Source of the DNA: Candidatus Latescibacterota bacterium
Lineage (GTDB): Bacteria > Latescibacterota > UBA2968 > UBA8231
Assembly (NCBI GenBank): GCA_965217585.1
Contig: OZ244561.1
Span: 6,848,001-6,912,000 of the forward strand
Reading direction: 5' to 3'
DNA: 64,000 bases
The notes beneath the pieces were generated by a model. It was not told the origin of the DNA. It made no database searches and saw only the letters and a program-made list of their open reading frames with translations. The position numbers and the translations under genes were made by a program. Below are positions 1,854-33,427 of the stretch, in pieces (within the stretch, counting starts at the first letter, position 1; the number at the start of each line of letters is the position of its first letter).

Positions 1854-1898
1854 AACGTGGCTCCTTTCAGAAGGATGAATGAGAAGGTTAGATGTATG

Positions 1899-2915: not shown

Positions 2916-2950
2916 AATGCATCTCCTTTCAGAAGGTTAGACTTCATCCC

Positions 2951-3847: not shown

Positions 3848-3859
3848 CGCTTCGTCTCC

Positions 3860-4909: not shown

Positions 4910-4967
4910 GGGAAATTCCTTTCGGTGAGTTTTGAGGACTCTTCCACACGCCATTTTCAATCATTCC

Positions 4968-5951
4968 TTATGGCAGCTTGGTCGTCTTTTTCGCTTCCAC
5001 CTGTCCGTCCACCTCGACCTTATAGATATACACTCCGGCAGCCACGGCCTTGTCCTGCTCGTCGCGGCCATCCCACACAAACCGATGGCTACCCGCCCCA
5101 AGCGGCCCGTGCCACAACTGCCGCACCCGATGACCCAACACGTTGTAGAGTGCCAAGTGGACCCGTTCCTCGTCCGTCGCCAAATCAAGAGGAATCACCA
5201 TCGCGGGATTGAACGGATTGGGATAGGCATCGCACAGCCGATGCTGCGCCGGCCGCGCTTCCACCAATGTCTGCACGGCGGTCATCTGATCCTGCTCGGC
5301 CTCCGAACAAGAGGTGGAAGAGCACTCGCATTGTCGCCAAAAAATGTTGCCTTCTGCGTTATAGTAATTAGTGCAATATCGGTACGGCTTGGTCGAGTCC
5401 CTCCCCTCGCACCAGCGGTTATCGCACTCAGTCTCTTGATTGAAGCAAGCATTGGTCGGCCCTGTGAACGCGGTCGCGGTCTCCGGCTCGGCCTCTGAAC
5501 AGGGGGTGGAGGAACACTCGCATGCTTCTGTCCCAAAAACGTCGCCGTTTGCTTTGTAGTAGTTGATACAGTATCGGTACGGCTTGGTCGAGTCCCTTCC
5601 TGCGCCGCACCACCGGTTATCGTTATCGCAATCAACCTTTCGGGTCAGCACAGCGGGTGCGATCCCTTGGTCGGCCTCCGAACAGGGAGTGGAGGAGTTC
5701 CAGCAATCCACTGTGTAGAAGTTGCAGTCCGCGTCCAAACCATAGGTGCAATAGCGATACATCCCCTCTGCCGACGCACAATCGGAGCCGGCACTGCACA
5801 CGGTCCAAGTGTACGGGCACTCTGTGTCGGCTGCGGAGCCCCTTGCGCCGAAGAGAATCACAAGCCCCGCGAGGGCACTTACGACCCATCCTTGCCCCTG
5901 TCGTATCCCCAACGTTGCCAAGCAGGCGATCAGTAGAGATCGATAGTTCAT
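4968..5951 (-). CDS. Secreted cysteine-rich protein with FlgD-Ig / T9SS-like sorting domain (paralog of 2951-3847)
   Basis: MNYRSLLIACLATLG leader; three YRYC...CxxSSTxCSEA modules; last ~90 aa almost identical to those of 2951-3847. Confidence 0.85.
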   Translation of the reverse strand: MNYRSLLIACLATLGIRQGQGWVVSALAGLVILFGARGSAADTECPYTWTVCSAGSDCASAEGMYRYCTYGLDADCNFYTVDCWNSSTPCSEADQGIAPAVLTRKVDCDNDNRWCGAGRDSTKPYRYCINYYKANGDVFGTEACECSSTPCSEAEPETATAFTGPTNACFNQETECDNRWCEGRDSTKPYRYCTNYYNAEGNIFWRQCECSSTSCSEAEQDQMTAVQTLVEARPAQHRLCDAYPNPFNPAMVIPLDLATDEERVHLALYNVLGHRVRQLWHGPLGAGSHRFVWDGRDEQDKAVAAGVYIYKVEVDGQVEAKKTTKLP

Positions 5952-9481: not shown

Positions 9482-9510
9482 AAGAAATCTGCTCCTTGTA
9501 TTTTTGCGCC

Positions 9511-10404
9511 TCACTGCGTCAGCGTGTGGCGCAACGCGCCCTCCAATTCAGGGTGCGCGAACTCGAAGCCCGCCTCCAACAGCCGCGTCGGCCGCACCCG
9601 CTGGCTGGCCAGCAACCCCTCCTCGGCCAACTCGCCCAAGAGCAGCTTGGCCGCAAACGCCGGCAGCGGCAACAGCGTCGGCCGCCGCAACACGCGCCCC
9701 AGCGTCCGCGTCAGCTCGGCATTGGTCACCGGCTGCGGCGCGGTCAGGTTCACCGGCCCGCGCAAGGCGTCGTTTTCCACGGCGTAGATCAGCGCCGCCA
9801 CTGCGTCCTCCAAGCTAATCCAGCTAACGTACTGCCGGCCATCGCCGATCTTGCCACCCACCCCTAGGCGGAAGGGCAACAGCATCTTGGCCAGCGCCCC
9901 GCCCCGACGACTCATGACGATCCCCAAGCGGGCCTGCACGACGCGGATACCAGCCTCGGCGGCCCCGGCGCTCGCCCCTTCCCACGCTCGGCCCAACTCG
10001 GCCAAAAATCCCTCACCAGTGTCGCTTTCCTCGTCCAACTCCTCGTCGCGCCGATTACCGTAAATACCGACGGCCGACGCGCAGATCAGCACCTGCGGCG
10101 GCGCGGCCAATTCCGCCAAGCGCGTAGCGAGTAGCTGCGTCGTCTGCACCCGGCTCTGGCGCAACTGCGCCTTGACAGTTGCAGTCCAGCGCCCGGCGGC
10201 GATGTTCCGCCCCCCTAAATGCACCGCCGCCTCTACCCCCTCCAAGCCCTCTTGCTCCAGCTCGCCGGCTTCTGGATCCCAGCGCAACTCTCCTTGCGCC
10301 GCCTGCCGCCGCACCAAGCGCACCACCTCGTGCCCTTCGCGCTCCAACTGGCTACAGAGCGCCGTACCGATCAAGCCGCTACTGCCCGCTACCAATATCT
10401 TCAC
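9511..10404 (-). CDS. TIGR01777/YfcH-family NAD-dependent epimerase-like oxidoreductase
   Basis: GSSGLIG Rossmann motif; SAVGIYG; GDGRQYVSWI; ASQRVRP C-terminal motif; AGGAG RBS. Confidence 0.9.
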   Translation of the reverse strand: MKILVAGSSGLIGTALCSQLEREGHEVVRLVRRQAAQGELRWDPEAGELEQEGLEGVEAAVHLGGRNIAAGRWTATVKAQLRQSRVQTTQLLATRLAELAAPPQVLICASAVGIYGNRRDEELDEESDTGEGFLAELGRAWEGASAGAAEAGIRVVQARLGIVMSRRGGALAKMLLPFRLGVGGKIGDGRQYVSWISLEDAVAALIYAVENDALRGPVNLTAPQPVTNAELTRTLGRVLRRPTLLPLPAFAAKLLLGELAEEGLLASQRVRPTRLLEAGFEFAHPELEGALRHTLTQ

Positions 10405-10433
10405 TAGCTCCTCCTCTTGGAATCACTGCTACT

Positions 10434-10461
10434 AAAACGCATCCTTGCGCCCGATACAAGG
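10434..10461 (+). repeat. 28-bp direct repeat, left copy
   Basis: aaaacgcatccttgcgcccgatacaagg; 26/28 identical to 23232-23259. Confidence 0.8.
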
Positions 10462-10487
10462 GTTGCAGGGCTAGGGGAGTCGCAGCA

Positions 10488-12182
10488 TCACCATGCCCCT
10501 ACACCGCGGCCTTCAGTCCGGCTGTCGCCAATGGCTTCGAGTACGCCGCTGGCGGGGTAGATGCGGATTAGGCTGAAATTGCCTGCCCAGCCGCCGACCT
10601 GCACTGGCTGTCCCCGGGCCGCTAAGCCGCGCGCGACCTCTGCGGGCGTGCCCTCCTCAATGGCCAGCCGCGCTTCCTTTGACCTGAGCTTGGGCCCGTG
10701 ATAACGCCAGCGGGGCTCGGCCACGGCTGCGGCCGCGGGCATGTTGCCGTCAATCATGTTGGTGATGACCTGCAAGTTCCACTGCACCTGCCCGTAATCG
10801 CCCGGGGTGCCGCCCACCAAGATGGGCTCGCCGTCCTCGACCAAGATGAAGCTGTTGAGGGTAAACAGGGGTCTCTTGCCGCCGGCCAGCACATTCGGGC
10901 TGTGCGGATCCAAGCTGAAATCAGTCATCCGGTTGTTCATGAATATCCCCGTACCTTCGGGTATGACCGCGGCCCCGAAGCCGTTCCACAAACTCTGCAC
11001 AACCGAGACCAAATTGCCCTCTCCGTCCGCCACCGCGTAGGTCGTGGTATCGCCGCCGCGTTTTTTAGGCTGCCCCGCGGGAATTCCGCCCAAGGTGCTG
11101 CGCATGGATATATCCGCACGCCGTTCTTGGGCGTACTCCTTGGACAGCAGACGCTCCATGGGCACATCGACGAAATCCGGGTCGCCGGCAAAGGCGTAGC
11201 GGTCGGCAAAGGCCAACTTCATGGATTCCACCAAGGCGTGTATCCCATCGACCGAACGCGGTCCCATTTGCGGCAGATCGTAGCCCTCGGCGATGTTGAG
11301 GGCTTCGAGGAGCAGAAACCCCTGGGATACCAGCGGCTGCTCGTACACAGTGTAACCGCGGTACGTGGTCGCGATCGGTTCCATGAGGCGGGCCGGGTAC
11401 TCCCGGAAGTCTTCTTCGGTGAAGTAGCCGTCACCTCGCTGCGATTGGGCCAAGATCGCCGCGGCGATTTCCCCACGATAAAAGCTATCTCTCCCCCCTT
11501 CGGCTACGTGGCGCAAGGTTCGCGCCAAGTCGGGTTGGCTGAAGGAAGCGCCGATCCCCGGTGGCTGGCCCCCAGCGCCGGCCAAAAAGCGCGCTACTGA
11601 TCTGGGGAAGATCGACTCGAACCCAGCATAGCTCTTCACTCTCCGGGCAAACCAGGGCGCCACCGGCATCCGCTCAGCCAACTCAATGGCCGGCTGCAGC
11701 ACTTGGCGCAGCGACATGGTGCCGTATTCCTCGAGCATCAATGCATAGGCATCGATTTCTCCCGGCACCAAGGCCGCCGCCATCCCGCGCTGTGGCACGC
11801 CCTCCGGCACAAAGTCCTCCAACTTGGCCTTGCTGGGGGCCGGACCGGTTCCGTTGATGGCCATCACTTTGCCGCTTGCAGCGTGGTAGAGCATGATGAG
11901 GGCATGGCCGCCCAGATGGCTGTTGTCCGGTTCTACCACGTTCATGGCCGCGCCCACCGCCACCGCCGCATCAAAGGCATTGCCGCCCTCCTGGAGCACC
12001 CTCATGCCAGCATTCACGGCGAGCGGATCATTGGCTACCACGGCTCCCCTAGTGCCAAAGGCCACGTGGGGATCACTGCCTTCACAGACCTGAGGTGCGA
12101 CGGACAGGCCGGCGCACAGCCAGAGCAGGGCCAGCAAGTCCGGTCTTGCATTGCGCAGGTTCCACTCCCGGTTCATTCCCAA
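10488..12182 (-). CDS. ggt: Gamma-glutamyltransferase (secreted, Ntn hydrolase)
   Basis: GGNAFDAAVA; GDTTTYAV autoprocessing Thr; PNxLxGGKRP; GTPG; N-terminal signal peptide. Confidence 0.92.
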   Translation of the reverse strand: MGMNREWNLRNARPDLLALLWLCAGLSVAPQVCEGSDPHVAFGTRGAVVANDPLAVNAGMRVLQEGGNAFDAAVAVGAAMNVVEPDNSHLGGHALIMLYHAASGKVMAINGTGPAPSKAKLEDFVPEGVPQRGMAAALVPGEIDAYALMLEEYGTMSLRQVLQPAIELAERMPVAPWFARRVKSYAGFESIFPRSVARFLAGAGGQPPGIGASFSQPDLARTLRHVAEGGRDSFYRGEIAAAILAQSQRGDGYFTEEDFREYPARLMEPIATTYRGYTVYEQPLVSQGFLLLEALNIAEGYDLPQMGPRSVDGIHALVESMKLAFADRYAFAGDPDFVDVPMERLLSKEYAQERRADISMRSTLGGIPAGQPKKRGGDTTTYAVADGEGNLVSVVQSLWNGFGAAVIPEGTGIFMNNRMTDFSLDPHSPNVLAGGKRPLFTLNSFILVEDGEPILVGGTPGDYGQVQWNLQVITNMIDGNMPAAAAVAEPRWRYHGPKLRSKEARLAIEEGTPAEVARGLAARGQPVQVGGWAGNFSLIRIYPASGVLEAIGDSRTEGRGVGAW

Positions 12183-12185
12183 CTC

Positions 12186-13850
12186 CTAATTTTCAGTTTT
12201 TTCCAGCCAGCTCATGGCCTTCAACACTTGGTCGAATACCTGGACATTGGCGCTGTACTTCTCCCTGAGCGCGTGGACGAATGCCACCCGTATACTGTCC
12301 TTCTGCGCGCTCTCCAGCATCAGCTTGGCACGGAGCTTTTGCTTTTTGTCCCAAGCCAGTTGCTTTCTCTCCCTAGAGAGAACCTTGAACACAGAATAGC
12401 CTTCCTCGACCTGTACCGGTCCCACCAGTTCCCCAATCGGGGCCTCCCTGGCGCGGCGAGCCAGTTCACCAAACCTGATGCTTTCGATGCTGTGGAAGTG
12501 GAACACGCCACCCTTTCCCTCGCTTGTCTGGCGCTTTGTGTACTGGTCCGCCAGTTCGCTCATTTTCTCTCCGGCATGGATTCGCGCTTTCAACTCCAGT
12601 GCCAGTTCCGCCTCGGCGACGAGAATTTCCTGTACTGTGATTTCCGCCGCCGTCCGGAACCACTCCGGGTGCGTTTCGTAGAATCGCCGCGCCTTCTCGT
12701 CATCTATGGGACGCGCTCGCGATAACTCTTTGGCCAGCATGATTTCGACCAGTTTCTCTTCGCTGCGTCCCCGCAACTCGGCTGCGATCGCACTTACCAT
12801 CCCCTTGGTCTCGGCCTCCTGCAGGATCAATAGCTGGGGGACGACATGGCTCTCCAGCAATTGTGCGACTCTAGCGCTGTCCGCGGGCCCTCCGAGATTG
12901 CCCTTGGCCGCTCCTAGCTCAACACAGGCCTGTCTCACGGTCAGGGTATCTTTTCTTATCCTCAACACCCCCGCATCGCCCTCCGCGCCTCCATCCTTGG
13001 AGCTTCTACAACTGCCGGCAGCGTCGTAGCACAGAGCATTCCAGCCCTCTGTAATAGGCTCTACATCGCATTTTTCGCGCAAACTGTCCGCCAGGGTGTG
13101 GAAGACCTCCCTCATCCTTCTGGCGTAGAGTTCCGCGTAGACATCATCCCGCACCGCGGAAAAGCCTGCTCGCCTAGTATCGACTGCCTGGTACACCCCG
13201 TACTTGCCACCCAGTTCAAATACATCGGAGACCTCGAGTTTGTCCAGTTCGCCGGCCAACCACCTCACCTCAGGGCGCATCCTGTACTGGACGATGTAGT
13301 CCCTATTGTAGTGGCACTCTCCACCCTCCAGTTTACCCGCGACTAGCTCATTTCCGCCGGTGCAATCCTCCCACTTAAATTCGCCTTTGAACAACGCCTC
13401 CCGGTAGCTTTGCGCCGCGCTTCGCGCAGTGAAGAGGAGCACGCCCAACTGCACTGCCCTGTCGCACTGAGTGCTCTCGCAGTAGCGACGCAACTCCGCG
13501 TCGCCAATTTCCAGCGCCGGCCCCGCACTGGCCTCCACCACCTTCCAAATCGCCGGATTGTGCACGGTCTGTCGGTGCCACCTCAGGTAGTCCAGATCGT
13601 CCTCTAGGTTTCTGGCGCGGGCCTCGTGCACCAGTAACTTCCGGTCGATCAGAGGCTGGAGGTATTCGCGCGGCCGATCCCCGGCCGCTCCGGAGACCCT
13701 CAGCTCCTCCGGCAGGTTGTGCACGTAGCGCCGCACCTGCTCCGCAGTAATCGGCTCCTCGAAAACCCTCGCCGCCACATTCTCCTGTGGCATATTGCGG
13801 CTGCAGGCGACCGTGCTGAAGAGCAGCAACATGAGCCTGGACAAGACCAT
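12186..13850 (-). CDS. Lipoprotein peptidyl-prolyl isomerase (parvulin/PrsA/SurA-like, two tandem units)
   Basis: Lipobox-like STVAC; C-terminal parvulin-like domain (EILV...A..GE.M.ELA.QY...GPVQVEEGYSVFKV). Confidence 0.8.
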   Translation of the reverse strand: MVLSRLMLLLFSTVACSRNMPQENVAARVFEEPITAEQVRRYVHNLPEELRVSGAAGDRPREYLQPLIDRKLLVHEARARNLEDDLDYLRWHRQTVHNPAIWKVVEASAGPALEIGDAELRRYCESTQCDRAVQLGVLLFTARSAAQSYREALFKGEFKWEDCTGGNELVAGKLEGGECHYNRDYIVQYRMRPEVRWLAGELDKLEVSDVFELGGKYGVYQAVDTRRAGFSAVRDDVYAELYARRMREVFHTLADSLREKCDVEPITEGWNALCYDAAGSCRSSKDGGAEGDAGVLRIRKDTLTVRQACVELGAAKGNLGGPADSARVAQLLESHVVPQLLILQEAETKGMVSAIAAELRGRSEEKLVEIMLAKELSRARPIDDEKARRFYETHPEWFRTAAEITVQEILVAEAELALELKARIHAGEKMSELADQYTKRQTSEGKGGVFHFHSIESIRFGELARRAREAPIGELVGPVQVEEGYSVFKVLSRERKQLAWDKKQKLRAKLMLESAQKDSIRVAFVHALREKYSANVQVFDQVLKAMSWLEKTEN

Positions 13851-16472
13851 TTACTCCAAACCGGCAAAGATGCGCACGAACGCCAGTGCATTGGCCTTGC
13901 GCCGGCCGTCTTTGAACTCCACGCCCTGCCTCATACCCACTTCGGAGATCAGGCGGTAGCCTTGATAGTCGGATGCGGAGGTGAATTGCACCACGTAATT
14001 GAAGGCGCTCAGATCATCATCCTCTTTGCCAAAGTCCTGAAATATCAGGTACTCCATGCCGGCTTCAAGGCGGCTATTATCCAGCGCGGGCACCCTTGCG
14101 AGCATGGATACAATTTCCTGTAGCTCATGCCGTTCTCGCGCGCCTTTTTTGAAGCCGGTATCATACAAATACATGCTCTTGATCCTCGGCTCGACGGCCA
14201 GACCGGCGCCGATAGGTAGGGTGTAATTCGCCCGGTTGACCACTCCGAGAAAGGTCGAACGATCCTGCAGATCTGCGAATTCTCTCCTCTGGTTGTAGAC
14301 CTCGTACTTAAGCCGATTCTGCAGACGGAATCCCGGAATCACATTGTAGTCGTTTTCCAGGTACAGGGTATTGACAAAGGTATCCCTCGCTGCCAACGGG
14401 TCATCAAACGGAACCAGTGATTCCTGGGCATTCGGCTCCTGGACCCACTGCAGCAGGTCGTCCCGGATATCGTCTTCGACCCACCTGGCCATGTCGAATA
14501 CGCGCACCTCGCCCCATTGGGGCAGGTCTTTTTGGTAGATAAACATGGCATAGGAACTGACGGCATTTCTGGCGGACGAGATGGTGTTGATATCGGCGCG
14601 TCCCAGCCACAACCTGCCCGAAGGCAGAATCTCGATGGACCAATTTACATTGAAGCCCTGGCGATCCACCTTGTAGGGATAATCGGGCAATTCGTCGTCT
14701 TCAAAGCGGTCGACTACGGTATTGTTGTTCATATCCATGCCAAAGAGAAAACCCGGCGGGTCTACCCCGTGTCGCAAAAAAGGCTCCACGTAATCCGGCT
14801 GGAAATTTCGATTCTGATTGAAATCCGAGACGAAATCGTTGTTCTCGTCGAGGCCCGGGAAAATGCCACGCCCCAAATCCCGGTCATTGCCCGCTCTCTG
14901 ATTCACGGACCTTCGGCGCCAGTCGGGGAACCGGTCCTGGTCGTCGTTGTCGTCGACGAACTCAAAGACTGCTGTACTGGCGTCATCGAAGAACAGCTCC
15001 CCCCGGTCATTTACCAGAAAGGCGCTCGTCGAATAGCGATCACCGAGGCTGTAGACCTCACCGTAGGCCGACCAGGGAAAGGTATTGTACTCGGCGATCA
15101 GGAAGAAGGCTTCTGATTTGTCCGTTGCCAGCTCGTGCTCTGTGGGCCCGATCTCGGGGTCGGGATTCGGAAATCTCCTGTGTCGCCGGTTGAAGGCGAT
15201 TTCTCCCTGCAATCTGACCCCCCCCAGATCCACCAAGTCCAGGGTTGCGCCGAACACTTCGTTGCCTGTCGGAAGTCCGTATTCAAAGGCCACGACCCGC
15301 ATATTGGTGCCATCGCGCACATTCCCCTTGGCCCGTGCCACCTGGAGAAAGATCGGATCTCCTCTTCGATTCAACTGCACATTGGAACTGACCGCGACCC
15401 TGTAGTCGTTGGCCAGCACCAGCTCAAATTCGACCTTCCTGAACGAGATGATGTCCACGACCTGATCCTCGTCGTCGAAATAGGTGAATTGACTCAAGTC
15501 GTATATGAGCAGGATCTGCTCTCCGCCGCTGGCCTCTAGCCTTCCAGACCGCCTAGTCCCACCGCGGATGAGCGGCGCAATTTCCGCCCTGCGGCCATCG
15601 ACGATGATCTGCTCTGAAATCAGCACGCCGCCGCCGCTGCCGTCCTCCGGCGAGTCGTCCGCTATCCTGACGGTGATTTCACTGGCCCGGGTGCTGTTCT
15701 GGGCTTGACTCAGAATGCCCGCAAGAGAGTTGTTCGACAGGTCCGCCACCGAGTTTGCCGTGAAGCCCGATACATAGGTGGCACCGAGCTTGAGAAAGTC
15801 GCCGACCTGAGTCGTCCCACGCAGACCGAGCAGATTGCCGAAATCCGAGGCGGTTTCGGGGGGTGCGAAGTCATCGAAACGTATGAGACCCGGATCACTG
15901 GTTCGGGAAAGCAGCAGGGTGAGTTCGTATTTATCGGCAAGGAAGTCCCACTGGACCCCGTTGAAGGTGGGCTTGGAAAACGTCAGGGGTGTGAGCGTAG
16001 TGCGAATCTCGTCACCGATCGTAATGGCAGTATGGTACTGCCCTTTCGAGGTCGCCGCGACCACCAGACTGTTGAACCACGCATTGAACCTCGGATTCTT
16101 GAAGACCCGGCTGCCGAATTCGCCTGCGTGCTCCTGTTCCCAGTCGTAGATCTTCCATCCCCGGGTTATGTAATTGCCATAGGTATCGTAGAATTGAAAC
16201 CCTTCCAGATTGATGTCTACGTACCTCATGTACTGTTCTTTGGCGTAGTTGCTGTACTCCCATTGCCGCCAGCCGAATTCGTAGAACAACTCCTGCGGCC
16301 GGTACCACTTCCTATGGTAGGGCTGCACGGCCCCGAATTCTACGGTAGGGCCGATCAATTCAAAGCTGCCTTTCGGGCTTCGGGGTTGAGCCCAACTCGG
16401 GGTTGATAGCAGCGCCAATGCCAGCGCGGGGAGCATACTTGTCCTAAGAGGGCTTCTAAAGGCGAGTACCAT
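13851..16472 (-). CDS. Large hypothetical protein, probable outer-membrane beta-barrel with Ca-binding loops
   Basis: Signal peptide; alternating aromatic strands in the C-terminal third ending AFVRIFAGLE; DDNDDQD, DENNDFVSD and DMNNNTVVD loops. Confidence 0.7.
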   Translation of the reverse strand: MVLAFRSPLRTSMLPALALALLSTPSWAQPRSPKGSFELIGPTVEFGAVQPYHRKWYRPQELFYEFGWRQWEYSNYAKEQYMRYVDINLEGFQFYDTYGNYITRGWKIYDWEQEHAGEFGSRVFKNPRFNAWFNSLVVAATSKGQYHTAITIGDEIRTTLTPLTFSKPTFNGVQWDFLADKYELTLLLSRTSDPGLIRFDDFAPPETASDFGNLLGLRGTTQVGDFLKLGATYVSGFTANSVADLSNNSLAGILSQAQNSTRASEITVRIADDSPEDGSGGGVLISEQIIVDGRRAEIAPLIRGGTRRSGRLEASGGEQILLIYDLSQFTYFDDEDQVVDIISFRKVEFELVLANDYRVAVSSNVQLNRRGDPIFLQVARAKGNVRDGTNMRVVAFEYGLPTGNEVFGATLDLVDLGGVRLQGEIAFNRRHRRFPNPDPEIGPTEHELATDKSEAFFLIAEYNTFPWSAYGEVYSLGDRYSTSAFLVNDRGELFFDDASTAVFEFVDDNDDQDRFPDWRRRSVNQRAGNDRDLGRGIFPGLDENNDFVSDFNQNRNFQPDYVEPFLRHGVDPPGFLFGMDMNNNTVVDRFEDDELPDYPYKVDRQGFNVNWSIEILPSGRLWLGRADINTISSARNAVSSYAMFIYQKDLPQWGEVRVFDMARWVEDDIRDDLLQWVQEPNAQESLVPFDDPLAARDTFVNTLYLENDYNVIPGFRLQNRLKYEVYNQRREFADLQDRSTFLGVVNRANYTLPIGAGLAVEPRIKSMYLYDTGFKKGARERHELQEIVSMLARVPALDNSRLEAGMEYLIFQDFGKEDDDLSAFNYVVQFTSASDYQGYRLISEVGMRQGVEFKDGRRKANALAFVRIFAGLE

Positions 16473-16523
16473 GAATCCACACCTTTCTCATTTGGGCCGG
16501 CCAAACCTCTGCCGTCGCAACAC

Positions 16524-18905
16524 TTAGTACGCGACCCCGACGGTTCGCACCACCCTGTCGTCCCCTTCATCTCCCTGTACATGGACCTCGCACACGTACA
16601 AGCCCGGACTGACCAGCCTGCCGCTGTCGTCTCTCCCATCCCACACCACCCCTCGGTACTCACCGGCTAGGCCTCCCTCGCTGAATACCTCTCGCACCAC
16701 AGCGCCCGAAAGCCGGTACACTCTGACCCTGATCTGGCGGGGAATCATCACCTTTACAATGGTGAAGCTCAACTCGAGATCGTCGTCCACTCCATCGCCA
16801 TTGGGGGTCAATATCCGGCGCGAGAACGCCACATCCCTTATGAGATCATGGCCTTCGGCCACTCCCTCCAGGCGGATTGCGAGGGCATCTTTCAACGCTT
16901 CGTCCTCCAGCACCCGTTGCCGCACCCCACTACCCAAGGTGCTGTTCTCGGCCCAGACCTGGATTCGGGAGCCGTTCGCGAACACCTTGCCCGACAATAC
17001 CACACGCACGGATTCCCTGCGCACGACCCGGTCGAAGCGCACCCACAGGGAGTCTCCAGCTCCACTGAATTGTAAGGCCGCAATTGCTCCGCGGTCCCGG
17101 TTGACCTCGACGAATTCTGGTTGCCAGACCCCCCGTATCAACACGCCATCGAGTCCGCGCGCGGCCCCTCCTGTCGCCTGCTTCAAGGTGACGAAAAAGG
17201 TATCTCGCTTTCCGGGCACGACGGCTCTGGGCTCAATCTGTCCTTCGATCTTCTGCGCCAGGGCGGCCACCGTGTTTAGTTCGATGAAATCGAGTGCCGG
17301 ACTCACGGCCGGATCGGTGGAACTCAACTGAGCTTCGATCTGGACGAAACGGCGAGGACTCGGCGACAGGAACTCGCCCCCGGAGTACTCGTAGGGTTCG
17401 CTCCAGCCGCTCCAGTCGGGTCCCGGAGAGATTTCTTCCACTATATCGCCCCGGCGAAACTTTGGGGTTTGCTCATAGACGGCCTGCGATACTTCCTCTC
17501 CGTTCTTTTTGAAATAGTGCGACGTTTTCTCTACGCTGCTTCCCGATCGAGTCCGCAGGCGGAAAGAGGTTCCTGCGGGCTCGGTCCCGCCCCAAGTTAG
17601 GGAGGATATGCTTTCCTGCGTGCCCAGATCGATGATCGGCGAGGTCAAAGTCACGCCCGGACTCCTGCCCTCGCCAAAGATCTGCATCTCGAAAATCAGA
17701 CCTCCATTACCGCCGCGCACAAAGTGCTGGTCCTGCGAGGTAAAGCCGTAGAAGTGATGGAGGAGGAGGTAGCGCACCCGCCGGCGCGCAAAGCCGATGT
17801 CGAATTTGAGCAAGCGCGGATTGTTGGCGTTGTTGTTCACATCGGCGACCTGCTCCCATTGCAGATCCCGACCATTCAGGCGCCACACCGAATCTGCGGA
17901 GCGGGTCGTGGTGGTGCCGTCCGAGACGTAGAGGCGGAAGCCGTCCATATCCGTCCTCACGGCCTCCTTGGTACGTCCCAGAACTCTGATCGAATCGACC
18001 CAGAACTGGCTGCCGAGATCCCACTGCAGGAACGAACCAACCCAACCACCCACACCCAAGGGACCGGGCTCGGCCCATGGATCGCCCCTGAGCGGTGTCT
18101 CCCAGCTCGTCCAGAACAGGCCGTCGAATAGATGACTCCCCGGCTGTGCCTTCTCGCCCGATATGGTGAAACCACCCCGTTCCTTGGTGGCGAGGGCGAT
18201 ATTGTCGCCGATCGCATCGACCTCTATCTCGGCCAGCGCCGCGTTTTCCGCCTTTTTGAGGAAGGCGATGCGGATGTACTGGACGACCTTCCCCATTAGT
18301 GGATCACCCGCCCGGTCGCGCTCTTCTAGGTCTATCTGAAACAGGTTCTCTCGATGGTCCTTTTTCGTCTCGTATATCAGCTCAAAGAAGAGATTCTCGA
18401 GCTGGCTGAACTCAAAGCGCTTGCGTCCATCGGAAACAAATATCTTGAACTGCGGGAAAGGAACCCGGTCTGCGGGAAAGATCAGCCTCAGCGCTGTGGC
18501 CGTGACAGCCCGACCCAAGTCCAGTTCCAGCCACCACTTCTCCACATCGTCGTCTGGGTCGGGTGCCCAGTAGGTGGAGCGTTGTCCATCGATGAGGTTG
18601 CCGGCGTCTCTCGGGTTGCTCCCCACCTCGCGAATACCGCCCTCCTGCGGACGGCCGCCGCGCTCGTACGAGAACTGGGTTGCGTTCAGCGCCGCGTTGA
18701 TCCCTTTGCGGATTCCATCGACCTCGATCCGGCCGTCGGGGGTTATCCTGGAAACACCTGCGGGGATGTCCCAGGTCTTCCACTCCGCGGCCGTGTCCCA
18801 ACGCAGTTCCGCGGCACCGGCATATCCCGCCCACAGGACGCCTCCCACCCAGGCGTAGAGGCAGAGCATGAATAGATACAGAGGTTGATTCGCGTTGCCG
18901 ACCAT
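16524..18905 (-). CDS. Secreted discoidin-like protein with TPNGDG/FlgD-Ig C-terminal domain
   Basis: Signal peptide; LIDG..TYW...ELDLG discoidin motifs; tail ILTPNGDGVDD...WDGRD...PGLY...VAY. Confidence 0.85.
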   Translation of the reverse strand: MVGNANQPLYLFMLCLYAWVGGVLWAGYAGAAELRWDTAAEWKTWDIPAGVSRITPDGRIEVDGIRKGINAALNATQFSYERGGRPQEGGIREVGSNPRDAGNLIDGQRSTYWAPDPDDDVEKWWLELDLGRAVTATALRLIFPADRVPFPQFKIFVSDGRKRFEFSQLENLFFELIYETKKDHRENLFQIDLEERDRAGDPLMGKVVQYIRIAFLKKAENAALAEIEVDAIGDNIALATKERGGFTISGEKAQPGSHLFDGLFWTSWETPLRGDPWAEPGPLGVGGWVGSFLQWDLGSQFWVDSIRVLGRTKEAVRTDMDGFRLYVSDGTTTTRSADSVWRLNGRDLQWEQVADVNNNANNPRLLKFDIGFARRRVRYLLLHHFYGFTSQDQHFVRGGNGGLIFEMQIFGEGRSPGVTLTSPIIDLGTQESISSLTWGGTEPAGTSFRLRTRSGSSVEKTSHYFKKNGEEVSQAVYEQTPKFRRGDIVEEISPGPDWSGWSEPYEYSGGEFLSPSPRRFVQIEAQLSSTDPAVSPALDFIELNTVAALAQKIEGQIEPRAVVPGKRDTFFVTLKQATGGAARGLDGVLIRGVWQPEFVEVNRDRGAIAALQFSGAGDSLWVRFDRVVRRESVRVVLSGKVFANGSRIQVWAENSTLGSGVRQRVLEDEALKDALAIRLEGVAEGHDLIRDVAFSRRILTPNGDGVDDDLELSFTIVKVMIPRQIRVRVYRLSGAVVREVFSEGGLAGEYRGVVWDGRDDSGRLVSPGLYVCEVHVQGDEGDDRVVRTVGVAY

Positions 18906-18919
18906 TTTGCCACCACCTC

Positions 18920-20809
18920 TCAGTACACAAGCGCAACCGACACTACCTCCACAAAGGTGTCCGTCTGGCTATCCACGCGGACAGAGCAGAGGTACAGGCC
19001 CGGGGGCACTAGGCGGCCGGTGTTGTTCCGCCCATCCCATTCCACCCGGTGACTTCCCCTGGGCATGGCTTGGTTTAGCAGTTCGCGCACTTTTTCGCCG
19101 CTGAGGTCGTAGATCGCCAGCCGCACCGGAATCGCCTCAAAGGCTTGAAATATCGCGAAGGAAATATCCGCGCTATCATTGACTCCATCCCCGTTGGGTG
19201 TGAACGGGTTGGAGCCGATCCCGACATTGCCGAGAATGGTGCCGAGGGAACTCTTCTTGGCCTCTACCAGCAACTCACCGCTCCTCGCCTCCTGTACCTT
19301 TTGGCCGAACGCGGCTTGCTCCTCCGAGGCAAATACCTCGCTGGAAAAGGTGTGGCCGAATTCCAAGAGCGCACTGGTGAAGATCACCTCCACCGAATCG
19401 CTCTCCTCCGACACCCTTGAAGCGGGATCGAGGAGCTGAATACTGATAACCCCGTCTTCTTGTTCTATTTTCAATTCCCCCACAGGTACCTCGGTCTGTC
19501 CCACCCGCACTGTTGTCACCTCGGTGCCTGCCGAGGTGGCAATTTGCACCATGTCGAATCCCACATCCCCATCCGCAAATGTGGGGCTGATGGTGTAGCG
19601 GAACTCTGTTTCGGCGCCGAGTTCCACATCCTGGCGCGGCGCAATACGGCCCATCAGTTGCTGCGCGAGGAGGGGATACTGAAACTGGATCCCCAAGGAA
19701 TCCATGGCTGCTCCATAGTCGGGTGACAGGGTTGTCATGGACGCCCGCACCTGGAGGAATCTACGCGGCCCGAGGGTCGCAATCCGCCCGCCGCTGTGGG
19801 CGTATGGGAGCGACCACGTGGTCCAGTTTTCCAGATCTCCGCGCACGCTTCCCCGCGCATCGGTGGGCAGCTCTTCCCATTCATCCTGGGCCTGTGCGTC
19901 GGTGGCGGCCTGGATCGGCACCTCCACACCAAACTCATTGATGCGATTGTACACCCGGGTCGTCCTGTCTTCGCCGACCCGGGTCTGTATGCTCAACGCC
20001 GATCCCGGTTCCAGATTGCTTCCCCAAATTATGTCGCCGAGATTCGCCACGGCACCCAGATCCAGCACCTTGGAGAGGAAAGATCCCCGCTTCACGAACC
20101 CGCTACCCCTGACCTCAATCTGGTCGATTTCAAAGGGCTGGGCAGACGAACTCCTCAGTTTCAGGAAGCGCACATGCTGGGCTGCGAATTGCACGGTGGT
20201 CTCTTGATTGACGTTGCGCGGTACAGCGCGCACCAGACTGTAGATCGGCAGCCCCTCCTCGTTCAGGGTTTCCGGCGACCCATCGTTTACGGACAGCTCG
20301 AAACCCTTCATATACAGATCGCGGTGGGCGCCAAAGCTCAGGGGATAGAACTTGAACTCGTCGACTGGAAACGCGCTTCCGAGGTCGATGAAAATTATGA
20401 CCCCGTTGTTGTTGCGCTCCCGGTTGAAGGCATTGAAGGAGGTTGAGTCGCGTTTTCCATCGGCGACCCTCAGCAGATCAAAATTCTCACCAAAACTACC
20501 GTTGGGTGTCCAGATTCGGGCATCGCCCGGCTGGAAATCCGCACTGGTGGGATCTCTTCCGGCAAATAAACGGCTGTCATTAAACAGCCGGTTCAGGATG
20601 TTCTGCTCCTGTTTCGTCCTTTCCAGCTGAATCCACCCCGGAGTCGTCGCGTCGTCCAGGCCCCTTAGCTCTCCGTCTTCGATCCAGGCCCGCCCGCCCC
20701 CGCCGACCACGAGGGTATCCACGACGGCGACGGCGGGCCGGACCGCCAGGAAGCCAACGCCAATCAGGATGGTCCCCGATTTTATGAATTGCCGCCAATG
20801 AGCGACCAT
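18920..20809 (-). CDS. Secreted protein with TPNGDG/FlgD-Ig C-terminal domain (paralog)
   Basis: Signal peptide; IDLG, SKVLDLG, WTTWS and PRRF motifs shared with its neighbour; tail PFTPNGDGVND...WDGRN...PGLY. Confidence 0.85.
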   Translation of the reverse strand: MVAHWRQFIKSGTILIGVGFLAVRPAVAVVDTLVVGGGGRAWIEDGELRGLDDATTPGWIQLERTKQEQNILNRLFNDSRLFAGRDPTSADFQPGDARIWTPNGSFGENFDLLRVADGKRDSTSFNAFNRERNNNGVIIFIDLGSAFPVDEFKFYPLSFGAHRDLYMKGFELSVNDGSPETLNEEGLPIYSLVRAVPRNVNQETTVQFAAQHVRFLKLRSSSAQPFEIDQIEVRGSGFVKRGSFLSKVLDLGAVANLGDIIWGSNLEPGSALSIQTRVGEDRTTRVYNRINEFGVEVPIQAATDAQAQDEWEELPTDARGSVRGDLENWTTWSLPYAHSGGRIATLGPRRFLQVRASMTTLSPDYGAAMDSLGIQFQYPLLAQQLMGRIAPRQDVELGAETEFRYTISPTFADGDVGFDMVQIATSAGTEVTTVRVGQTEVPVGELKIEQEDGVISIQLLDPASRVSEESDSVEVIFTSALLEFGHTFSSEVFASEEQAAFGQKVQEARSGELLVEAKKSSLGTILGNVGIGSNPFTPNGDGVNDSADISFAIFQAFEAIPVRLAIYDLSGEKVRELLNQAMPRGSHRVEWDGRNNTGRLVPPGLYLCSVRVDSQTDTFVEVVSVALVY

Positions 20810-21519
20810 TCTTTAACTTTCTCCACCTCGCGCTCAAACCTGTACACGGCATTCAGGGTACGGGTCGGCCGGCCCGCATAATCGAAGCGGACGACGATAT
20901 CATTTACGAAGACGGTTATCTGCTGGACCTCTTCGTGCAGCCGGGGGAATACCACAAAACCGCTGTCTTCCTGCCCGCTGAATACCGGCTCCTTCTTGTA
21001 CAGGGTCCGCCGTAGGAGATCCACCCGCCGCTGGAACAGACGGTGGAAGGCATTCCCCGCATAGCCCTGGGCGAGCGGATAGTAATACTGCTCGAGCAGC
21101 GCCAGCGAAAACGGCTCGTACATACGGCCACTTGCCGATCTGACTCCGATATTCAGCGGATCCACGATGACTTTTGGAAATTCGTAGTTCTTTACGCTCA
21201 GCAGCAGTACGGTGAAAAGACCGGGGGGTTCCTCCCGGTCCGGTGGTTTGAAGTCCCCCAGGGTGTACGGATTGGAGGACTTGTTGCCGCTCCTGGAGTA
21301 CTGCTCAAACTGCCTGTTCAATTCCCGATCGGTGAACACCCGGACCCCCACCTCCAGCCTGCCCTCTGTGAAGATCACCGTTCCGTTGTCGAGGACATTG
21401 ACATCCGCGCTCTGGTGCTTCGAATCCACCGGTTGCAGAGCGCCGAAGGAAAGCTGGTACGAGCAGCCCGACAGCAGAGCGGGGACGAGTCCACAGTAGA
21501 GAAGTTTTTTGAGTTCCAT
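20782..21519 (-). CDS. Hypothetical lipoprotein
   Basis: Lipobox LLSGC; overlaps the downstream gene start by 28 bp. Confidence 0.75.
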   Translation of the reverse strand: MELKKLLYCGLVPALLSGCSYQLSFGALQPVDSKHQSADVNVLDNGTVIFTEGRLEVGVRVFTDRELNRQFEQYSRSGNKSSNPYTLGDFKPPDREEPPGLFTVLLLSVKNYEFPKVIVDPLNIGVRSASGRMYEPFSLALLEQYYYPLAQGYAGNAFHRLFQRRVDLLRRTLYKKEPVFSGQEDSGFVVFPRLHEEVQQITVFVNDIVVRFDYAGRPTRTLNAVYRFEREVEKVKEWSLIGGNS

Positions 21520-21545
21520 CCACCGTACTCGCGGTCCAAAATAGA

Positions 21546-21596
21546 AAACGGCAGGCGGGAATAGCGACGTAAAACCCCGTGTCCCACCTGCCGTTT
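21546..21596 (-). terminator. Intra-operon stem-loop / terminator
   Basis: aaacggcaggcggga ... tcccacctgccgttt 15-bp stem, running into TTTTCTATTTT on the minus strand. Confidence 0.7.
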
Positions 21597-21614
21597 ATTG
21601 GTTGTGCGGCTTAT

Positions 21615-22493
21615 TTATTCAGAGCCGAAAGCCGCCTTGATCCGTCCCCAGGTCCGCGCTTCGGTCGCGGTGGGGATCTCGGCCTCGGTGTCGGCTACGG
21701 ACACTAGGAGCACGTCGCTGGCATTTTCTCCCTGGGTGGCCAGATCCCCGAGCCGCCAGGCCACCTCGTCCTTGGGATCCTCGGTGTCCTGGTCCTCAAT
21801 GGTCATGCCGAGACCAATCACCTCGCCGGCAGTCAAGGTGTGCACTGCGGAGGCGTCCGGGCCGTCGAAGGACAACTCGTCGTAGGTGATCTGGGCGATC
21901 TCAAAGGTCCAGTCGTTGTCTATGGTTTCCCCCGCCTGGAACATCTGCGGCTCATCCGTCACCCACTTCAGCGGACCTGGTTCGACGCCAGACCCCTCGA
22001 TCTGCCAGAACACGACGATTTTCTCGTCCGGGGTCCAGCCAAACTGCTGGGCCCTCCGGGAATCGTTACCCTCCTGGCCAAAGTCGGGGTCGGCGCTGTG
22101 GTCGGCGTCCAAGAGCCACATGTAGTTGTCTTCGGCGAAGGACACCGAGTAGTCCTCTGCCCGCGAAAACTGCAGGTCGTCTATGATGCGACCTACGTGG
22201 TAGAGCATGTTGGTTTCGGGGCTCCAAGCCAAGAAGAACAGCACATCGAAGTCGTCTCGCGGGGTACTGCCGCTGGAGACACCGTCCGATACTACGCCCG
22301 GCCATGGACTGCTCATGGTCCAGGTGAAGGTGTCGGGCATCCAGGCCCAGTCCGAGATGTCGCCGTCGAACTGGATCTGCGCGAGCTTGTCCGACGGAAT
22401 CCCAGCCGCAAAGGCCTCGAATCCAGCGGGAGTGTGCGCCGCACTATGGGTGACCCATCCCGTCAGGATGAGCATGGCGATACTGAGTCTCAT
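21615..22493 (-). CDS. Secreted acidic protein, CBM9/DOMON-like fold, with C-terminal TWGRIK motif
   Basis: AGGAGG RBS; signal peptide; FDGDISDW ... WTFEIA ... GEVIGL pattern typical of CBM9-like domains; tail PTATEARTWGRIKAAF. Confidence 0.8.
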   Translation of the reverse strand: MRLSIAMLILTGWVTHSAAHTPAGFEAFAAGIPSDKLAQIQFDGDISDWAWMPDTFTWTMSSPWPGVVSDGVSSGSTPRDDFDVLFFLAWSPETNMLYHVGRIIDDLQFSRAEDYSVSFAEDNYMWLLDADHSADPDFGQEGNDSRRAQQFGWTPDEKIVVFWQIEGSGVEPGPLKWVTDEPQMFQAGETIDNDWTFEIAQITYDELSFDGPDASAVHTLTAGEVIGLGMTIEDQDTEDPKDEVAWRLGDLATQGENASDVLLVSVADTEAEIPTATEARTWGRIKAAFGSE

Positions 22494-22625
22494 GATGGCC
22501 TCCTGTGTCGTTGAGTGCTGCGTATAGTTCCAACCTTATCCACTGCCACTTATTTTCATTTTTTTTCGGCTTTCACCCCCTTTCTATCATACATGAGATG
22601 GCGCTTGTACATGGCTCCCTGTTGT

Positions 22626-23108
22626 CTACAGGACTCGCTCCATGATGTATCTATCGACCGCTCCCTCAGGGGTATCGTTGCGCACCCGCACAATCACGTT
22701 TCCGTCCACCCGCACAATTATGGTTTCGTCTAGCGTCGGATACACGCTCAGTCTTATGCTGATCTCCATGCCGCCCGGGAGCACTCTGCCCAGCAGGTCG
22801 TGCCGGGCACCGGGGGCCGGCACCCTCTCGTACACCAGTCTCTCGGGGGGATTGCCTTCCACCTGAGTGCTTATCACAATGCCTCCCAGTCCCCCCAGTC
22901 CCTCCGCACTCTGGTCAAAAATCAGAAAAACGCTCCCGTCCTCAAAACCGGCACCGGCGCTACTCGAGAAACACCCGTAGCTCATGCCCAGCAGAACGAC
23001 GGCGACAGCGCCGACCCAGGTCTGCCGTGGCCCCGATCTTAGGATGCCCTCATTTTGCGCTCTGTTTCGACCTGCCAAAGGACCACGGCCCGTGACCTTT
23101 CGACGCAT
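22626..23108 (-). CDS. Hypothetical (lipo)protein
   Basis: Hydrophobic segment ending SYGC; start uncertain. Confidence 0.5.
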   Translation of the reverse strand: MRRKVTGRGPLAGRNRAQNEGILRSGPRQTWVGAVAVVLLGMSYGCFSSSAGAGFEDGSVFLIFDQSAEGLGGLGGIVISTQVEGNPPERLVYERVPAPGARHDLLGRVLPGGMEISIRLSVYPTLDETIIVRVDGNVIVRVRNDTPEGAVDRYIMERVL

Positions 23109-23231
23109 CTACTGACTCCAGTGCATGTACCGCGGTTCACGTTTTCTTAGATATTATACTGTCCTCCCCAAGTCGCAACAAGGCCAATATTCTATATATG
23201 ATATGGTGTTAGAGTTGTCGCGTTATAGGCC

Positions 23232-23259
23232 AAAACGCATCCTCGCGCCCGACACAAGG
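23232..23259 (+). repeat. 28-bp direct repeat, right copy
   Basis: aaaacgcatcctcgcgcccgacacaagg; matches 10434-10461. Confidence 0.8.
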
Positions 23260-23419
23260 TCGGCAGTCCGTGCCTATCCTTTGAGGGTGGTATCGGCTCC
23301 ACGCTCGTGCGCTTGACCCGGTCTTTTTCCCTTGTTTTTCTCTTATAGAAGCGAGTAAGCGATCCCACCTGCTGGAGTGGCATCGAACCCCACTACTCAG
23401 AAAGTACGCATCATGCCTG

Positions 23420-24925
23420 ATGATTATGGAATCACCACTGCAACCTGGGACAACTCCAAGGGGCACGTTTTTATCCGACATGGTAAGCAAGCTAATGACA
23501 CAGCCTTTTGACGCAGCGAATTGGCTCGGCCGGCTAGCAGCAGCGCTTGAGGATGTTGCGGCAAACGCGAGACCCTCTTTCCCCTTTTCGCCAGAGACCC
23601 CACACTATGGCCCGCTAGACGAATACTGGTCGAGTATCCGCCGACAATACCGGGATCTCGCCGCTCGCGCAAAACACGATCCCGCCGCCGCGAAGATCTT
23701 CGCAGAATCCCACCTCTGGCTCAAGTCCGATCCTGCAGCAGCAAGGGCAATCCTACGGGAGCATCCCTTGCTACGACCGGGACTGATAGGTTTTGGAAAA
23801 CGCGAAGGGGTCGGCTTCACGCTTTCCACGCACGACTGGTTCTACGTCGATCTGAAGTCCCTCGTATCCCATCTGGCCAAACGCGCTATGAAGGATAGCG
23901 GGGAGCAGACAGCGAAACTGCTGCACCGCTACCTGACGGCCGGAGAGGACACAAATCTCCCGGCATCCGAGATCACGCTCTTGCACGGCTTGAAACTCGA
24001 CCGGCGCTTCGATCTTGGCAGCGAAGCCTATCTGGCACCCTACGAGGACGCCAAGGCGACGTACGGCCTGCCCGACGAACCCGAGAAGCGGCTTAACGAC
24101 GCTGGCCGAAACCCAAGTCGGTCGAACCGTCCCGTGAGCACTACTGTGCTCGTGCGTGGTCTAAGTTGGGGGCCAGGCGTCGCACCCCCTCCGGACGATG
24201 ACGATTCTTCCAATAAGTCCCGCCGATCTTGCGCCCCGAAAGTCAAGTACCGCTTTCCCGGCGACTACGAGATCGACCTTGCGGATCGATTTCCCGACGA
24301 CAACAAAGTCCTAGTGGATCTGCTGTCGATCGCAACGAGGAGTCCGCTGATCTCCCACACGAGCTTTGTCCGCGTCGCCAAGTGGGTAGAGGAGCTTGAT
24401 CCCAACTTCGCGTTCAGTTCTCGTAGCGCCTCCGCCTCCTTGCCCGACGCATCGCCCAAGGAACACCAACTCTGCCAGCATGACGCGGCAGCTTTCGTTA
24501 CATTGGCCAGCCGCTGGTGCGCTTATCGAGGCAGGCGCGATGTTATCGACATTGCGATCCGTCGGCTCGCCGCCTCTTTCGCCCGGGTCGGCGGGCCATT
24601 TAGTACGGAGGACCGAATCCTCGACGTCTCCATCGCCTTGGAGATCATGTACGGTCCAATCAAACAAAAACTGACCCACCAACTGGCGACCCGGGCAGAA
24701 CGACTGCTCGGCCCAAGCACCGACCAACGCGGCTGGATATCCAACAGAGTAAAGTCCTTCTATGGAGTCCGTTCGGCCATCGTGCATGGGCAAAAGAAGA
24801 TCAAAGGCGGCCGACGCGCTATCGACGAGGTGCTGGAGGACGGTCGCGATCTAGCTTGCCTCACGCTCTCAGAATTGCTATCCCGAGGGCCAGTAAGGGA
24901 TTGGGACAAGCTCGCGGACGCGTGA
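23420..24925 (+). CDS. HEPN-domain protein (ApeA-like), putative RNase/defence protein
   Basis: C-terminal IALE...LATRA...FYGVRSAIVHG with an RxxxxH motif; true start may be 23480 or 23495. Confidence 0.7.
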   Translation: MIMESPLQPGTTPRGTFLSDMVSKLMTQPFDAANWLGRLAAALEDVAANARPSFPFSPETPHYGPLDEYWSSIRRQYRDLAARAKHDPAAAKIFAESHLWLKSDPAAARAILREHPLLRPGLIGFGKREGVGFTLSTHDWFYVDLKSLVSHLAKRAMKDSGEQTAKLLHRYLTAGEDTNLPASEITLLHGLKLDRRFDLGSEAYLAPYEDAKATYGLPDEPEKRLNDAGRNPSRSNRPVSTTVLVRGLSWGPGVAPPPDDDDSSNKSRRSCAPKVKYRFPGDYEIDLADRFPDDNKVLVDLLSIATRSPLISHTSFVRVAKWVEELDPNFAFSSRSASASLPDASPKEHQLCQHDAAAFVTLASRWCAYRGRRDVIDIAIRRLAASFARVGGPFSTEDRILDVSIALEIMYGPIKQKLTHQLATRAERLLGPSTDQRGWISNRVKSFYGVRSAIVHGQKKIKGGRRAIDEVLEDGRDLACLTLSELLSRGPVRDWDKLADA

Positions 24926-24994
24926 GAATAACTCTCGCCAAGCAGGTAGCAATTAACTTCTGCCCGCTATCAATACCTTCAATGGAGATACGAG

Positions 24995-27217: not shown

Positions 27218-27243
27218 TTGATCCCCGAAGTGGAGATAAGTAG

Positions 27244-33306: not shown

Positions 33307-33427
33307 GCCTTCTTTACCTCCTTCTCTCAGATCTAACACATGCAGATATTTGTTTCGGTCAAAACCGTTGACCAAGAGGGCACGACAAAATATAACTCCG
33401 TCGCAATGCGTCCTCCAAAGGTCATCT

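Follow-up and report, generated by a model that had tools for sequence, protein, structure and literature searches.

An amplified envelope gene cassette in a Latescibacterota genome encodes type-B-like tails, a predicted 24-strand barrel and a short C-terminal WGxIK tail

We describe a compact set of envelope genes, here called the cassette, in Candidatus Latescibacterota bacterium, together with the two kinds of C-terminal tail carried by its products. The set lies in the window, by which we mean the whole 64,000-nucleotide stretch that was analysed (contig OZ244561.1, positions 6,848,001 to 6,912,000). Seven genes follow one another on the minus strand in the order A-B-C-D-E-F-GGT, with spacings of 95, -28, 14, 51, 0 and 3 bp. 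A (21615-22493; 292 amino acids, aa) has an AGGAGG ribosome-binding site (RBS) and a TWGRIK tail, and encodes a secreted protein predicted to be CBM9/DOMON-like, probably an abundant and variable binding subunit. It is followed by a 15-bp stem-loop and a U-rich run (21546-21596, minus), which is either terminator-like or mRNA-stabilising. B (20782-21519; 245 aa, LSGC lipobox) is a lipoprotein of an unnamed family, and C (18920-20809; 629 aa) is secreted and combines a single discoidin-like domain with a middle region that is conserved and with a type-B-like C-terminal domain (CTD). D (16524-18905; 793 aa) is paralogous to C, has a similar CTD and contains two discoidin-like (F5/8 type C) domains, E (13851-16472; 873 aa) is a predicted outer-membrane beta-barrel of about 24 strands, and F (12186-13850; 554 aa, TVAC lipobox) is a lipoprotein with two tandem SurA/PrsA-like chaperone-parvulin units. 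The last gene (10488-12182) encodes a gamma-glutamyltransferase (GGT) scoring over the TIGR00066 cut-off. A, B and E have no Pfam or NCBIfam match at all, and only parts of C, D, F and GGT can be named. This seven-gene operon had been proposed in a first-pass annotation of the sequence, and all of its open reading frames (ORFs), as well as the RBS, tail and lipoboxes, were verified.

The inventory of that annotation was right for the genes it listed and overlooked three things: an ORF upstream of A, a direct repeat around the whole block, and dozens of paralogous cassettes elsewhere in the genome. The ORF (22626-23108, minus; 160 aa) lies 132 bp upstream of A and belongs to no known family, with no Pfam or NCBIfam match. 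It has a homologue directly upstream of A in G104, a genome of another genus (E 5e-7), and is 88% identical in the congener G134. A candidate promoter, TTGTTG-17 nt-TATAAT (23153-23181, minus), was read by eye and is absent from the list given by a consensus scan; one contig from an RNA run ends close to it, at 23135, which is a weak sign. An Rfam scan of 9000-25000 matched no family.

The direct repeat is imperfect, its two 35-nt copies (10434-10468, just upstream of an epimerase-like gene, and 23232-23266) being 86% identical and spaced 12,798 nt apart. They bracket a 12.8-kb island holding GGT, the genes F to A and the 160-aa ORF, and no further copies were found in the genome. Among 24 congeners searched, the whole block occurs only in G134, and an orthologue of A is found in one of 30. 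At 14 congener loci, eight have an empty site with a single repeat copy, four have other deletions, G146 has GGT only and G134 has the full island. Identity to G134 is 88-89% at two core loci, 89-93% in the flanks and 93-97% in the island genes; these values suggest that the island has been exchanged horizontally between species, with slower evolution of the island genes as the alternative. No integrase was seen among the large ORFs of the window that were scanned. A 501-aa ORF (23420-24925, plus) adjoins the right end of the island, has no Pfam or NCBIfam match, and is absent or truncated in some congeners.

The product of E had been called a probable beta-barrel, and its structural model bears this out. 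Built from a 120-row alignment (pLDDT 77, pTM 0.77), the model has 24 long strands by our count. They are connected alternately by short turns (2-7 residues) and by loops that are mostly longer, and one face is more hydrophobic in most strands. It contains two large inserts, a beta-sandwich (residues 240-398) and an acidic, DxNxD-rich loop (476-602) with 23% Asp plus Glu and many invariant Asp and Asn residues, a composition that would suit calcium binding. The N-terminal segment is also conserved, with invariant Tyr and Gly residues. Strand parity, counted from the C-terminus without coordinates, would put both inserts on the long-loop, extracellular side and give the N-terminal 60 residues a periplasmic entry; confidence in the model is low for the acidic loop and for the N-terminus. 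Structural matches are to generic barrels only, at 4-13% identity: Foldseek lists MtrB first (E 3e-10, query TM 0.26), then Deinococcus SlpA, FimD (E 4e-7) and LptD, and VIA-align ranks porins and receptors with little difference between them (best Z 14.0). The profile of the family matches no sequence in the PDB at E 1, and the protein itself matches no Pfam family at E 0.1, including PF11751, PF00593 and PF07715; its named homologues are hypothetical proteins, mostly from Latescibacterota. A lead to DUF6029 was dropped, its score (0.89) being below the reliable range, and the Atlas neighbours of the protein are unnamed. By its model E is a membrane barrel, and its family matches no known barrel family.

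The remaining products can be placed in part. C scores over the cut-offs for FlgD_ig and CHU_C (33.5 bits for CHU_C, cut-off 27), with TIGR04131 reaching 18.7 bits (cut-off 35); its discoidin-like domain was assigned by a profile match to D, which itself matches PF00754 (E 3.5e-10) and has an internal repeat (residues 85-218 and 240-387). Both proteins end in a type-B-like CTD by alignment. F matches Rotamase_2 (E 3e-10), and a SurA/PrsA-like unit is duplicated within it, the two halves aligning at an hhalign probability of 99.8%, so that the double parvulin chaperone first proposed is indeed what is found; 24 of 25 F paralogues have Glu at the position of the parvulin His motif. For B, no Pfam or NCBIfam match was obtained, hence no PorE-like TPR, propeller or peptidoglycan-binding domain was detected, and its Atlas clusters are unnamed. 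The GGT orthologue in G104 is 67% identical and lies about 10 kb from a related cassette, which (L017-L018, contig C11) is flanked by a DUF6785-like gene, by this orthologue and by an ORF that we take to be aminoacylase-like. The three other GGT paralogues of the genome lie 17-78 kb from any cassette, and for this reason GGT is an accessory of this copy and not part of the core. Its presence points, if faintly, to peptides or gamma-glutamyl compounds as what this copy handles.

For A, the model (pLDDT 86) is a complete beta-sandwich with a helical tail. The best fold match is CBM9 (TmCBM9-2, PDB 1i82; Foldseek E 1e-8), with VIA-align giving Z 18.9 and a root-mean-square deviation (rmsd) of 2.9 A over 184 residues. 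PF06452 is matched by 33 of 112 homologues, A not being among them. The homologues are mostly 19-38% identical to A and conserve Asp, Glu and Trp positions. A also resembles a haem-binding DOMON subunit (2ivf_C, Z 11.3), and the family conserves neither Met nor His at the 70% level. By its predicted fold A is CBM9/DOMON-like, and carbohydrate binding by it is putative.

The stem-loop with its U-tract was verified (z = -2.47; 3 of 200 shuffles fold equally well), and in G134 the stem is identical and the loop different. When the genome was scanned for similar structures, a terminator-like hairpin was found after 40 of 45 tailed A genes and none of five untailed ones, the corresponding counts being 10 of 171 for C/D genes and 35 of 400 for random genes; on these counts the hairpin after A is beyond chance. 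A strong RBS precedes 31 of 45 A genes and 80 of 400 controls. Together the hairpin and the strong RBS suggest that A is built for production in excess, and the idea that the first gene encodes a major, highly expressed subunit is to this extent upheld. A major pilin gene followed by a hairpin is a known layout, as is that of binding-protein-dependent transport operons with a highly expressed first gene, and the arrangement around A suits either one equally. The analogy with fimbrial operons that had been drawn from it is weak, since A is a complete CBM9-like domain and the genome possesses a type IX secretion system (T9SS) translocon of its own. RNA gives a weak hint of a step-down in expression at the hairpin. 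The region is present as RNA contigs in metatranscriptomes of four studies, with near-identical sequence in sponge runs. In runs X11 and X13 the depth over A is 26-28 and 15, respectively, compared to 2-4 over B-E, and the contigs over A end beside the hairpin, at 21619 and 21601, that of X13 with a loose end there; single contigs bridge the hairpin in runs X1 and X9. All four RNA runs were available as contigs and without a DNA run, and contig depth of this kind cannot rank genes or measure a step.

The locus is one of many. The genome is a single contig of 7.32 Mb, and profiles built from its own paralogues identify 50 A, 25 B, 81 E, 47 F and 171 full-length C/D proteins. The six families make up 374 ORFs and 748 kb, or 10.2% of the chromosome, a figure that leaves out 95 matches to the CTD only. 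Fifty-four of the 81 barrels are close to E and 27 distant. The 39 clusters with a close barrel all contain a TPNGD protein, and C and D are each present in 38, A in 34, F in 31 and B in 12. An orphan D-family gene within the window (41135-43459, plus) lacks a barrel and lies behind a gene for a glucose/sorbosone-dehydrogenase-like CTD protein (38690-41122, plus). Within the phylum, the E profile matches 106 of 168 genomes, including all 75 of its own family and none of 56 in three other families. The gene set is conserved, and the order A-B-C-D-E recurs in G027 and G025, which belong to another family; gene order and strand vary freely among the paralogous cassettes of the genome itself, and shuffled or partial forms are found in G005, G002 and G104. 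A literature search, outside which fell most subscription papers and supplements with their possible annotations, found no published description of the cassette or of the WGxIK tail, and the accessible parts of PMC4454575, PMC9603273 and PMC12860637 hold nothing that bears on the cassette. We conclude that the cassette is a real, conserved and undescribed envelope apparatus, which agrees with the first proposal of a multi-component system matching no named one.

The two kinds of tail behave differently. In line with what was first suspected, the TPNGDG-type tail tracks the barrel from genome to genome. The motif TPNGDGxND occurs in 88 of the 168 phylum genomes, every one of which carries E; the 62 genomes lacking E all lack the motif as well, and the TPNGD motif is likewise missing from 24 genomes outside the clade that lack E. 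Eighteen genomes have E without the motif, and 16 of these show only weaker barrel matches among the few candidates scored. In our genome, TPNxD is found in 161 of the 171 C/D proteins. The same genome has parts of a T9SS, namely SprA (TIGR04189 over the cut-off), seven PorV-family matches over the cut-off and a PorU-like C25 peptidase adjoining the best of these. PF11751 (PorP/SprF) was not matched in it, nor in any control genome, so its absence is not established. Type B cargo in Bacteroidota remain bound to cognate 14-stranded barrels, according to PMC9143113 and, for the binding, PMC10994853. As the genome owns a T9SS translocon, E more probably anchors or receives than exports, and by analogy it is best read as the cognate partner of C and D rather than their exit channel, a binding that we only propose. 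A complex prediction of E (residues 36-872) with the CTD of C scored 0.15 against a mark of 0.32 and, being without controls, speaks neither for nor against it.

The WGxIK tail has a far wider range. It ends 73 ORFs of the genome (motif in the last 28 aa), compared to 1 and 0 in two control windows, and 42 of them are of the A family and 31 are not. A signal peptide is likely in 64 of the 73 by a rough rule, compared to 58 of 400 controls. In A the tail reads T-A-x-E-x-x-T-W-G-R-I-K, and positions -7, -6 and -5 before the Trp are Thr, Ala/Ser and Val in 64, 64 and 62 of the 73. In the phylum, 86 of 168 genomes carry the tail, all of them with E, and among the matches listed beyond it are Eisenbacteria, Krumholzibacteriia, Coatesbacteria, Zixiibacteriota and other lineages. 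At 80 loci examined, 79 of 82 tail matches lie within 16 residues of the stop codon. From these loci we picked 24 genomes outside the clade and one control; all 25 carry the tail (1-70 copies) and SprA, and only the control has E or the TPNGD motif, although many of the genomes are drafts and very distant barrels could escape notice. The proposal that the cassette handles WGxIK-tagged proteins is contradicted by these 24 barrel-less genomes and by the 31 tailed proteins outside the A family: the cassette is not needed for the tail.

In the window (966-5951, minus), a tandem array of secreted proteins comprises three tailed beta-propellers (PD40 or WD40) and, alternating with them, two Cys-rich proteins that end in type A CTDs. 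Immediately ahead of the window start come four further tailed propeller genes, and a Cys-rich paralogue elsewhere in the genome (3437428-3437994) has the tail in place of the CTD. Genomes G170, G185, G190, G184 and G168, from barrel-less lineages, hold 46-70 strict tail motifs each, often in tandem. At 477823-480514, A and B genes stand directly upstream of a PorV-like barrel, with ExbB about 4 kb further on; E is absent there, and the arrangement may connect the tail with a PorV paralogue.

Whether the tail is itself a secretion signal can be approached by comparing it with the CTDs of T9SS cargo. A T-[AS]-[VI] linker precedes 55 of 91 PNPFN-type CTDs, compared to 56 of 2190 background windows, and the type A model accepts two PNPFN-type CTDs of the window. 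The tail closes 111 of 150 A homologues, a PNPFN-type CTD closes seven, and the other 32 end otherwise; P0211 is an A domain fused straight to a CTD. Three of the 73 tailed proteins share a body with a CTD protein (against 91 PNPFN-type ORFs), and one such body runs to the junction (47% over 118 aa, with window 2951-3847). No family model matches the tail. It is about 18 aa long and is modelled as a helix at pLDDT ~60; its Kyte-Doolittle moment, by contrast, favours strand over helix periodicity, so that it may take either shape. Against a role as signal stand the lack of the 7-stranded beta-sandwich fold of a CTD, the few swaps, and the near-universal SprA, present in 163 of 168 phylum genomes including 56 without the tail, which makes their co-occurrence weak evidence. 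According to the review PMC5445135, the final 22 residues of a CTD were enough to bring about secretion in P. gingivalis. From the motif and its distribution we regard a secretion signal as possible, though rather doubtful; a membrane-binding helix or a tag for another sorting factor are open alternatives.

The genes around the cassettes bear on what they might do. Within 6 kb of cassettes lie 76 of 146 FG-GAP-like genes and 35 of 78 DUF6785-like genes, compared to a background of 10%. ExbB/MotA genes lie within 20 kb of one of the 54 close barrels and 11 of the 27 distant ones, neighbouring barrels not being independent, and a linked proton motor was therefore rejected for the close subfamily and may hold for the distant one. 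The distant barrels (for instance 3752202-3760726) are often in tandem, usually without A, D or F, and near ExbB, and are probably a separate, energised system. A DUF6785 plus DUF6784 membrane protein in the window (51229-53205, minus) is one of the roughly 78 paralogues enriched beside cassettes; our literature search found no paper on these two families.

From the observed composition, folds, amplification, co-distribution and DNA-encoded expression signals we infer a mechanism in which the cassette is a T9SS-fed surface capture module anchored on its own barrel and capable of uptake, its ligands being only proposed; we hold the chances of this reading to be evenly balanced. Sec would carry all products across the inner membrane. 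F, a double SurA-like chaperone tethered to the membrane, would keep E, and possibly also C and D, in the periplasm up to the insertion of the barrel. C and D would exit through SprA by means of their type-B-like CTDs and then stay on their cognate E, at its acidic loop or inserted domain, as cargo do on PorP/SprF in Bacteroidota, with B as an optional lipoprotein adaptor. A, overproduced through a strong RBS and a leaky terminator that steps expression down after it, would bind the ligand as the variable subunit and would probably owe its export to the short tail. Solutes or fragments of polymers, once bound, would travel through the wide barrel and reach enzymes in the periplasm (here GGT) and carriers in the inner membrane (DUF6785-like). 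Each paralogous cassette would serve a different ligand, and cassettes would be gained, lost and swapped between species as units.

A number of observations weigh against this reading. Ligand, binding, transport and localisation are all deduced, and the plug region and acidic loop of E are modelled at low confidence. The CTDs of C and D score under the TIGR04131 cut-off, which is reached by seven of 76 matches in the genome, and D is also under that of CHU_C. The shared distribution of TPNGD and E may reflect mere co-inheritance of the cassette among kin. The known carriers of the PorP/SprF type have 14 strands, with docking on SprA proposed for them (PMC9143113), and a barrel of 24 strands may be unsuited to that role. 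From this copy it is 29 kb to the nearest DUF6785-like gene, the close barrels have almost no ExbB/MotA nearby, and sulfatases (7 of 49), a GH-like family (5 of 23; neither significant against 10%), oxidoreductases and ABC ATPases are not enriched near cassettes, unlike in a polysaccharide utilisation locus (PUL).

These last two facts are equally what one would expect if the cassette served display only, with E anchoring lectin-like proteins for adhesion to, or recognition by, a host or matrix and no transport taking place. Such a role would also fit the discoidin and CBM9 folds and the near-identical sequence in sponge metatranscriptomes, and the type B precedent is one of anchoring and not of uptake (PMC9143113). 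We nevertheless think it unlikely, as a 24-strand barrel with a conserved N-terminal segment exceeds the needs of an anchor, the surroundings are strongly enriched in genes for DUF6785-like membrane proteins, and GGT moves together with this copy. Quite improbable, in our view, is an export and assembly machine of chaperone-usher type, in which A would be the major subunit of a fibre built through E, with F as chaperone and C and D as tip adhesins. The major gene, hairpin and tightly coupled genes recall such operons, FimD is among the Foldseek matches of E, and a dedicated chaperone is present in 31 of 39 clusters; yet the usher matches are poor (query TM ~0.2, rmsd 25-31 A) and stand among generic barrels, A models as a complete sandwich, its tail is found on unrelated proteins and in 24 genomes without E, and the cell already owns SprA. 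A porin-cytochrome-like or S-layer-like structural complex, to which the MtrB and SlpA matches of E and the DOMON likeness of A would point, is very improbable, given that those matches are of low quality (query TM 0.17-0.26, rmsd 19-22 A), that CBM9 scores far above DOMON for A in a family without a conserved Met or His, and that dozens of diverged, swappable paralogues suit ligand diversity better than a scaffold.

The capture reading and the tail can also be combined in a single, more demanding proposal, which is tentative and on the unlikely side. The cassette would be a new capture machine, with a 24-strand barrel for both anchoring and uptake, a hypervariable CBM9-like subunit and repeat-bounded exchange, and the tail [TP]-[AS]-V-E-x-x-[ST]-W-G-x-I-K (~18 residues) would be a miniature third T9SS signal, interchangeable with the type A CTD and present on up to 70 proteins per genome in Latescibacterota, Eisenbacteria, Krumholzibacteriia and other uncultured lineages. 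The original question splits in two, since TPNGD cargo goes with the barrel and the WGxIK tail ranges far beyond it. A lineage that devotes a tenth of its chromosome to one apparatus probably depends on it for feeding or attachment, and its members are expressed in sponge and marine communities. If the tail is a secretion signal, the sorting rules of the T9SS extend beyond Bacteroidota, many orphan proteins of candidate phyla become annotated, and a very short export tag is at hand.

Other genes of the window include a GmrSD-type restriction endonuclease N-terminal domain (31426-33375, minus) and, at 24995-28740 (plus) and 44669-48751 (minus), a family 11 rhamnogalacturonan lyase, a GH32 protein and, next to a true TonB-dependent receptor, an alpha-L-fucosidase.

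Compared with known systems, the components resemble several and coincide with none. The WGxIK tail shares with the T9SS type A CTD (TIGR04183) the T-[AS]-[VI] linker and the C-terminal position, and replaces that CTD on some homologues; it differs in its length and in being a low-confidence helix in place of a 7-stranded beta-sandwich. A shares the fold and conserved acidic positions of CBM9 (1i82), and differs in being only 12-15% identical to it and stand-alone, with longer loops and a C-terminal tail. Chaperone-usher systems (FimD, PapC) share with the cassette a strong first gene with its hairpin, a chaperone and a barrel with about 24 strands, whereas no usher, PapD-like or pilin family is matched, F is parvulin-type, A has a complete CBM9-like fold, and the inserted domain of E would be extracellular by strand parity.

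The likeness to two systems of Bacteroidota goes further. SusC/SusD polysaccharide utilisation loci occur as many paralogous loci combining a barrel with variable surface binding proteins, and the cassette too forms dozens of paralogous loci with a barrel, variable binders and an occasional hydrolase. E, however, matches neither TonB-dependent receptor nor plug families of Pfam (PF00593, PF07715), both of which are matched by the true receptor in the same window, and the binders carry T9SS-type tails and have no SusD match, with no ExbB link and no enrichment of degradative enzymes. A similar picture emerges for T9SS type B cargo with PorP/SprF (PG1035-PorP-PorE; SprB-SprF), where TPNGDG-type cargo beside a barrel and lipoprotein, many paralogous sets and SprA are all shared. 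Here E has about 24 predicted strands and an unmatched sequence, and PorP/SprF have 14 strands and belong to the FadL family (PMC9143113). B differs from PorE in that no peptidoglycan-binding domain was detected in it, F is parvulin-type, and the cassette adds the double-SurA chaperone and an abundant CBM9-like subunit with another kind of tail. By analogy, the cassette would work most like type B cargo held on a cognate barrel and organised with the logic of utilisation loci, while its barrel sets it apart from both.

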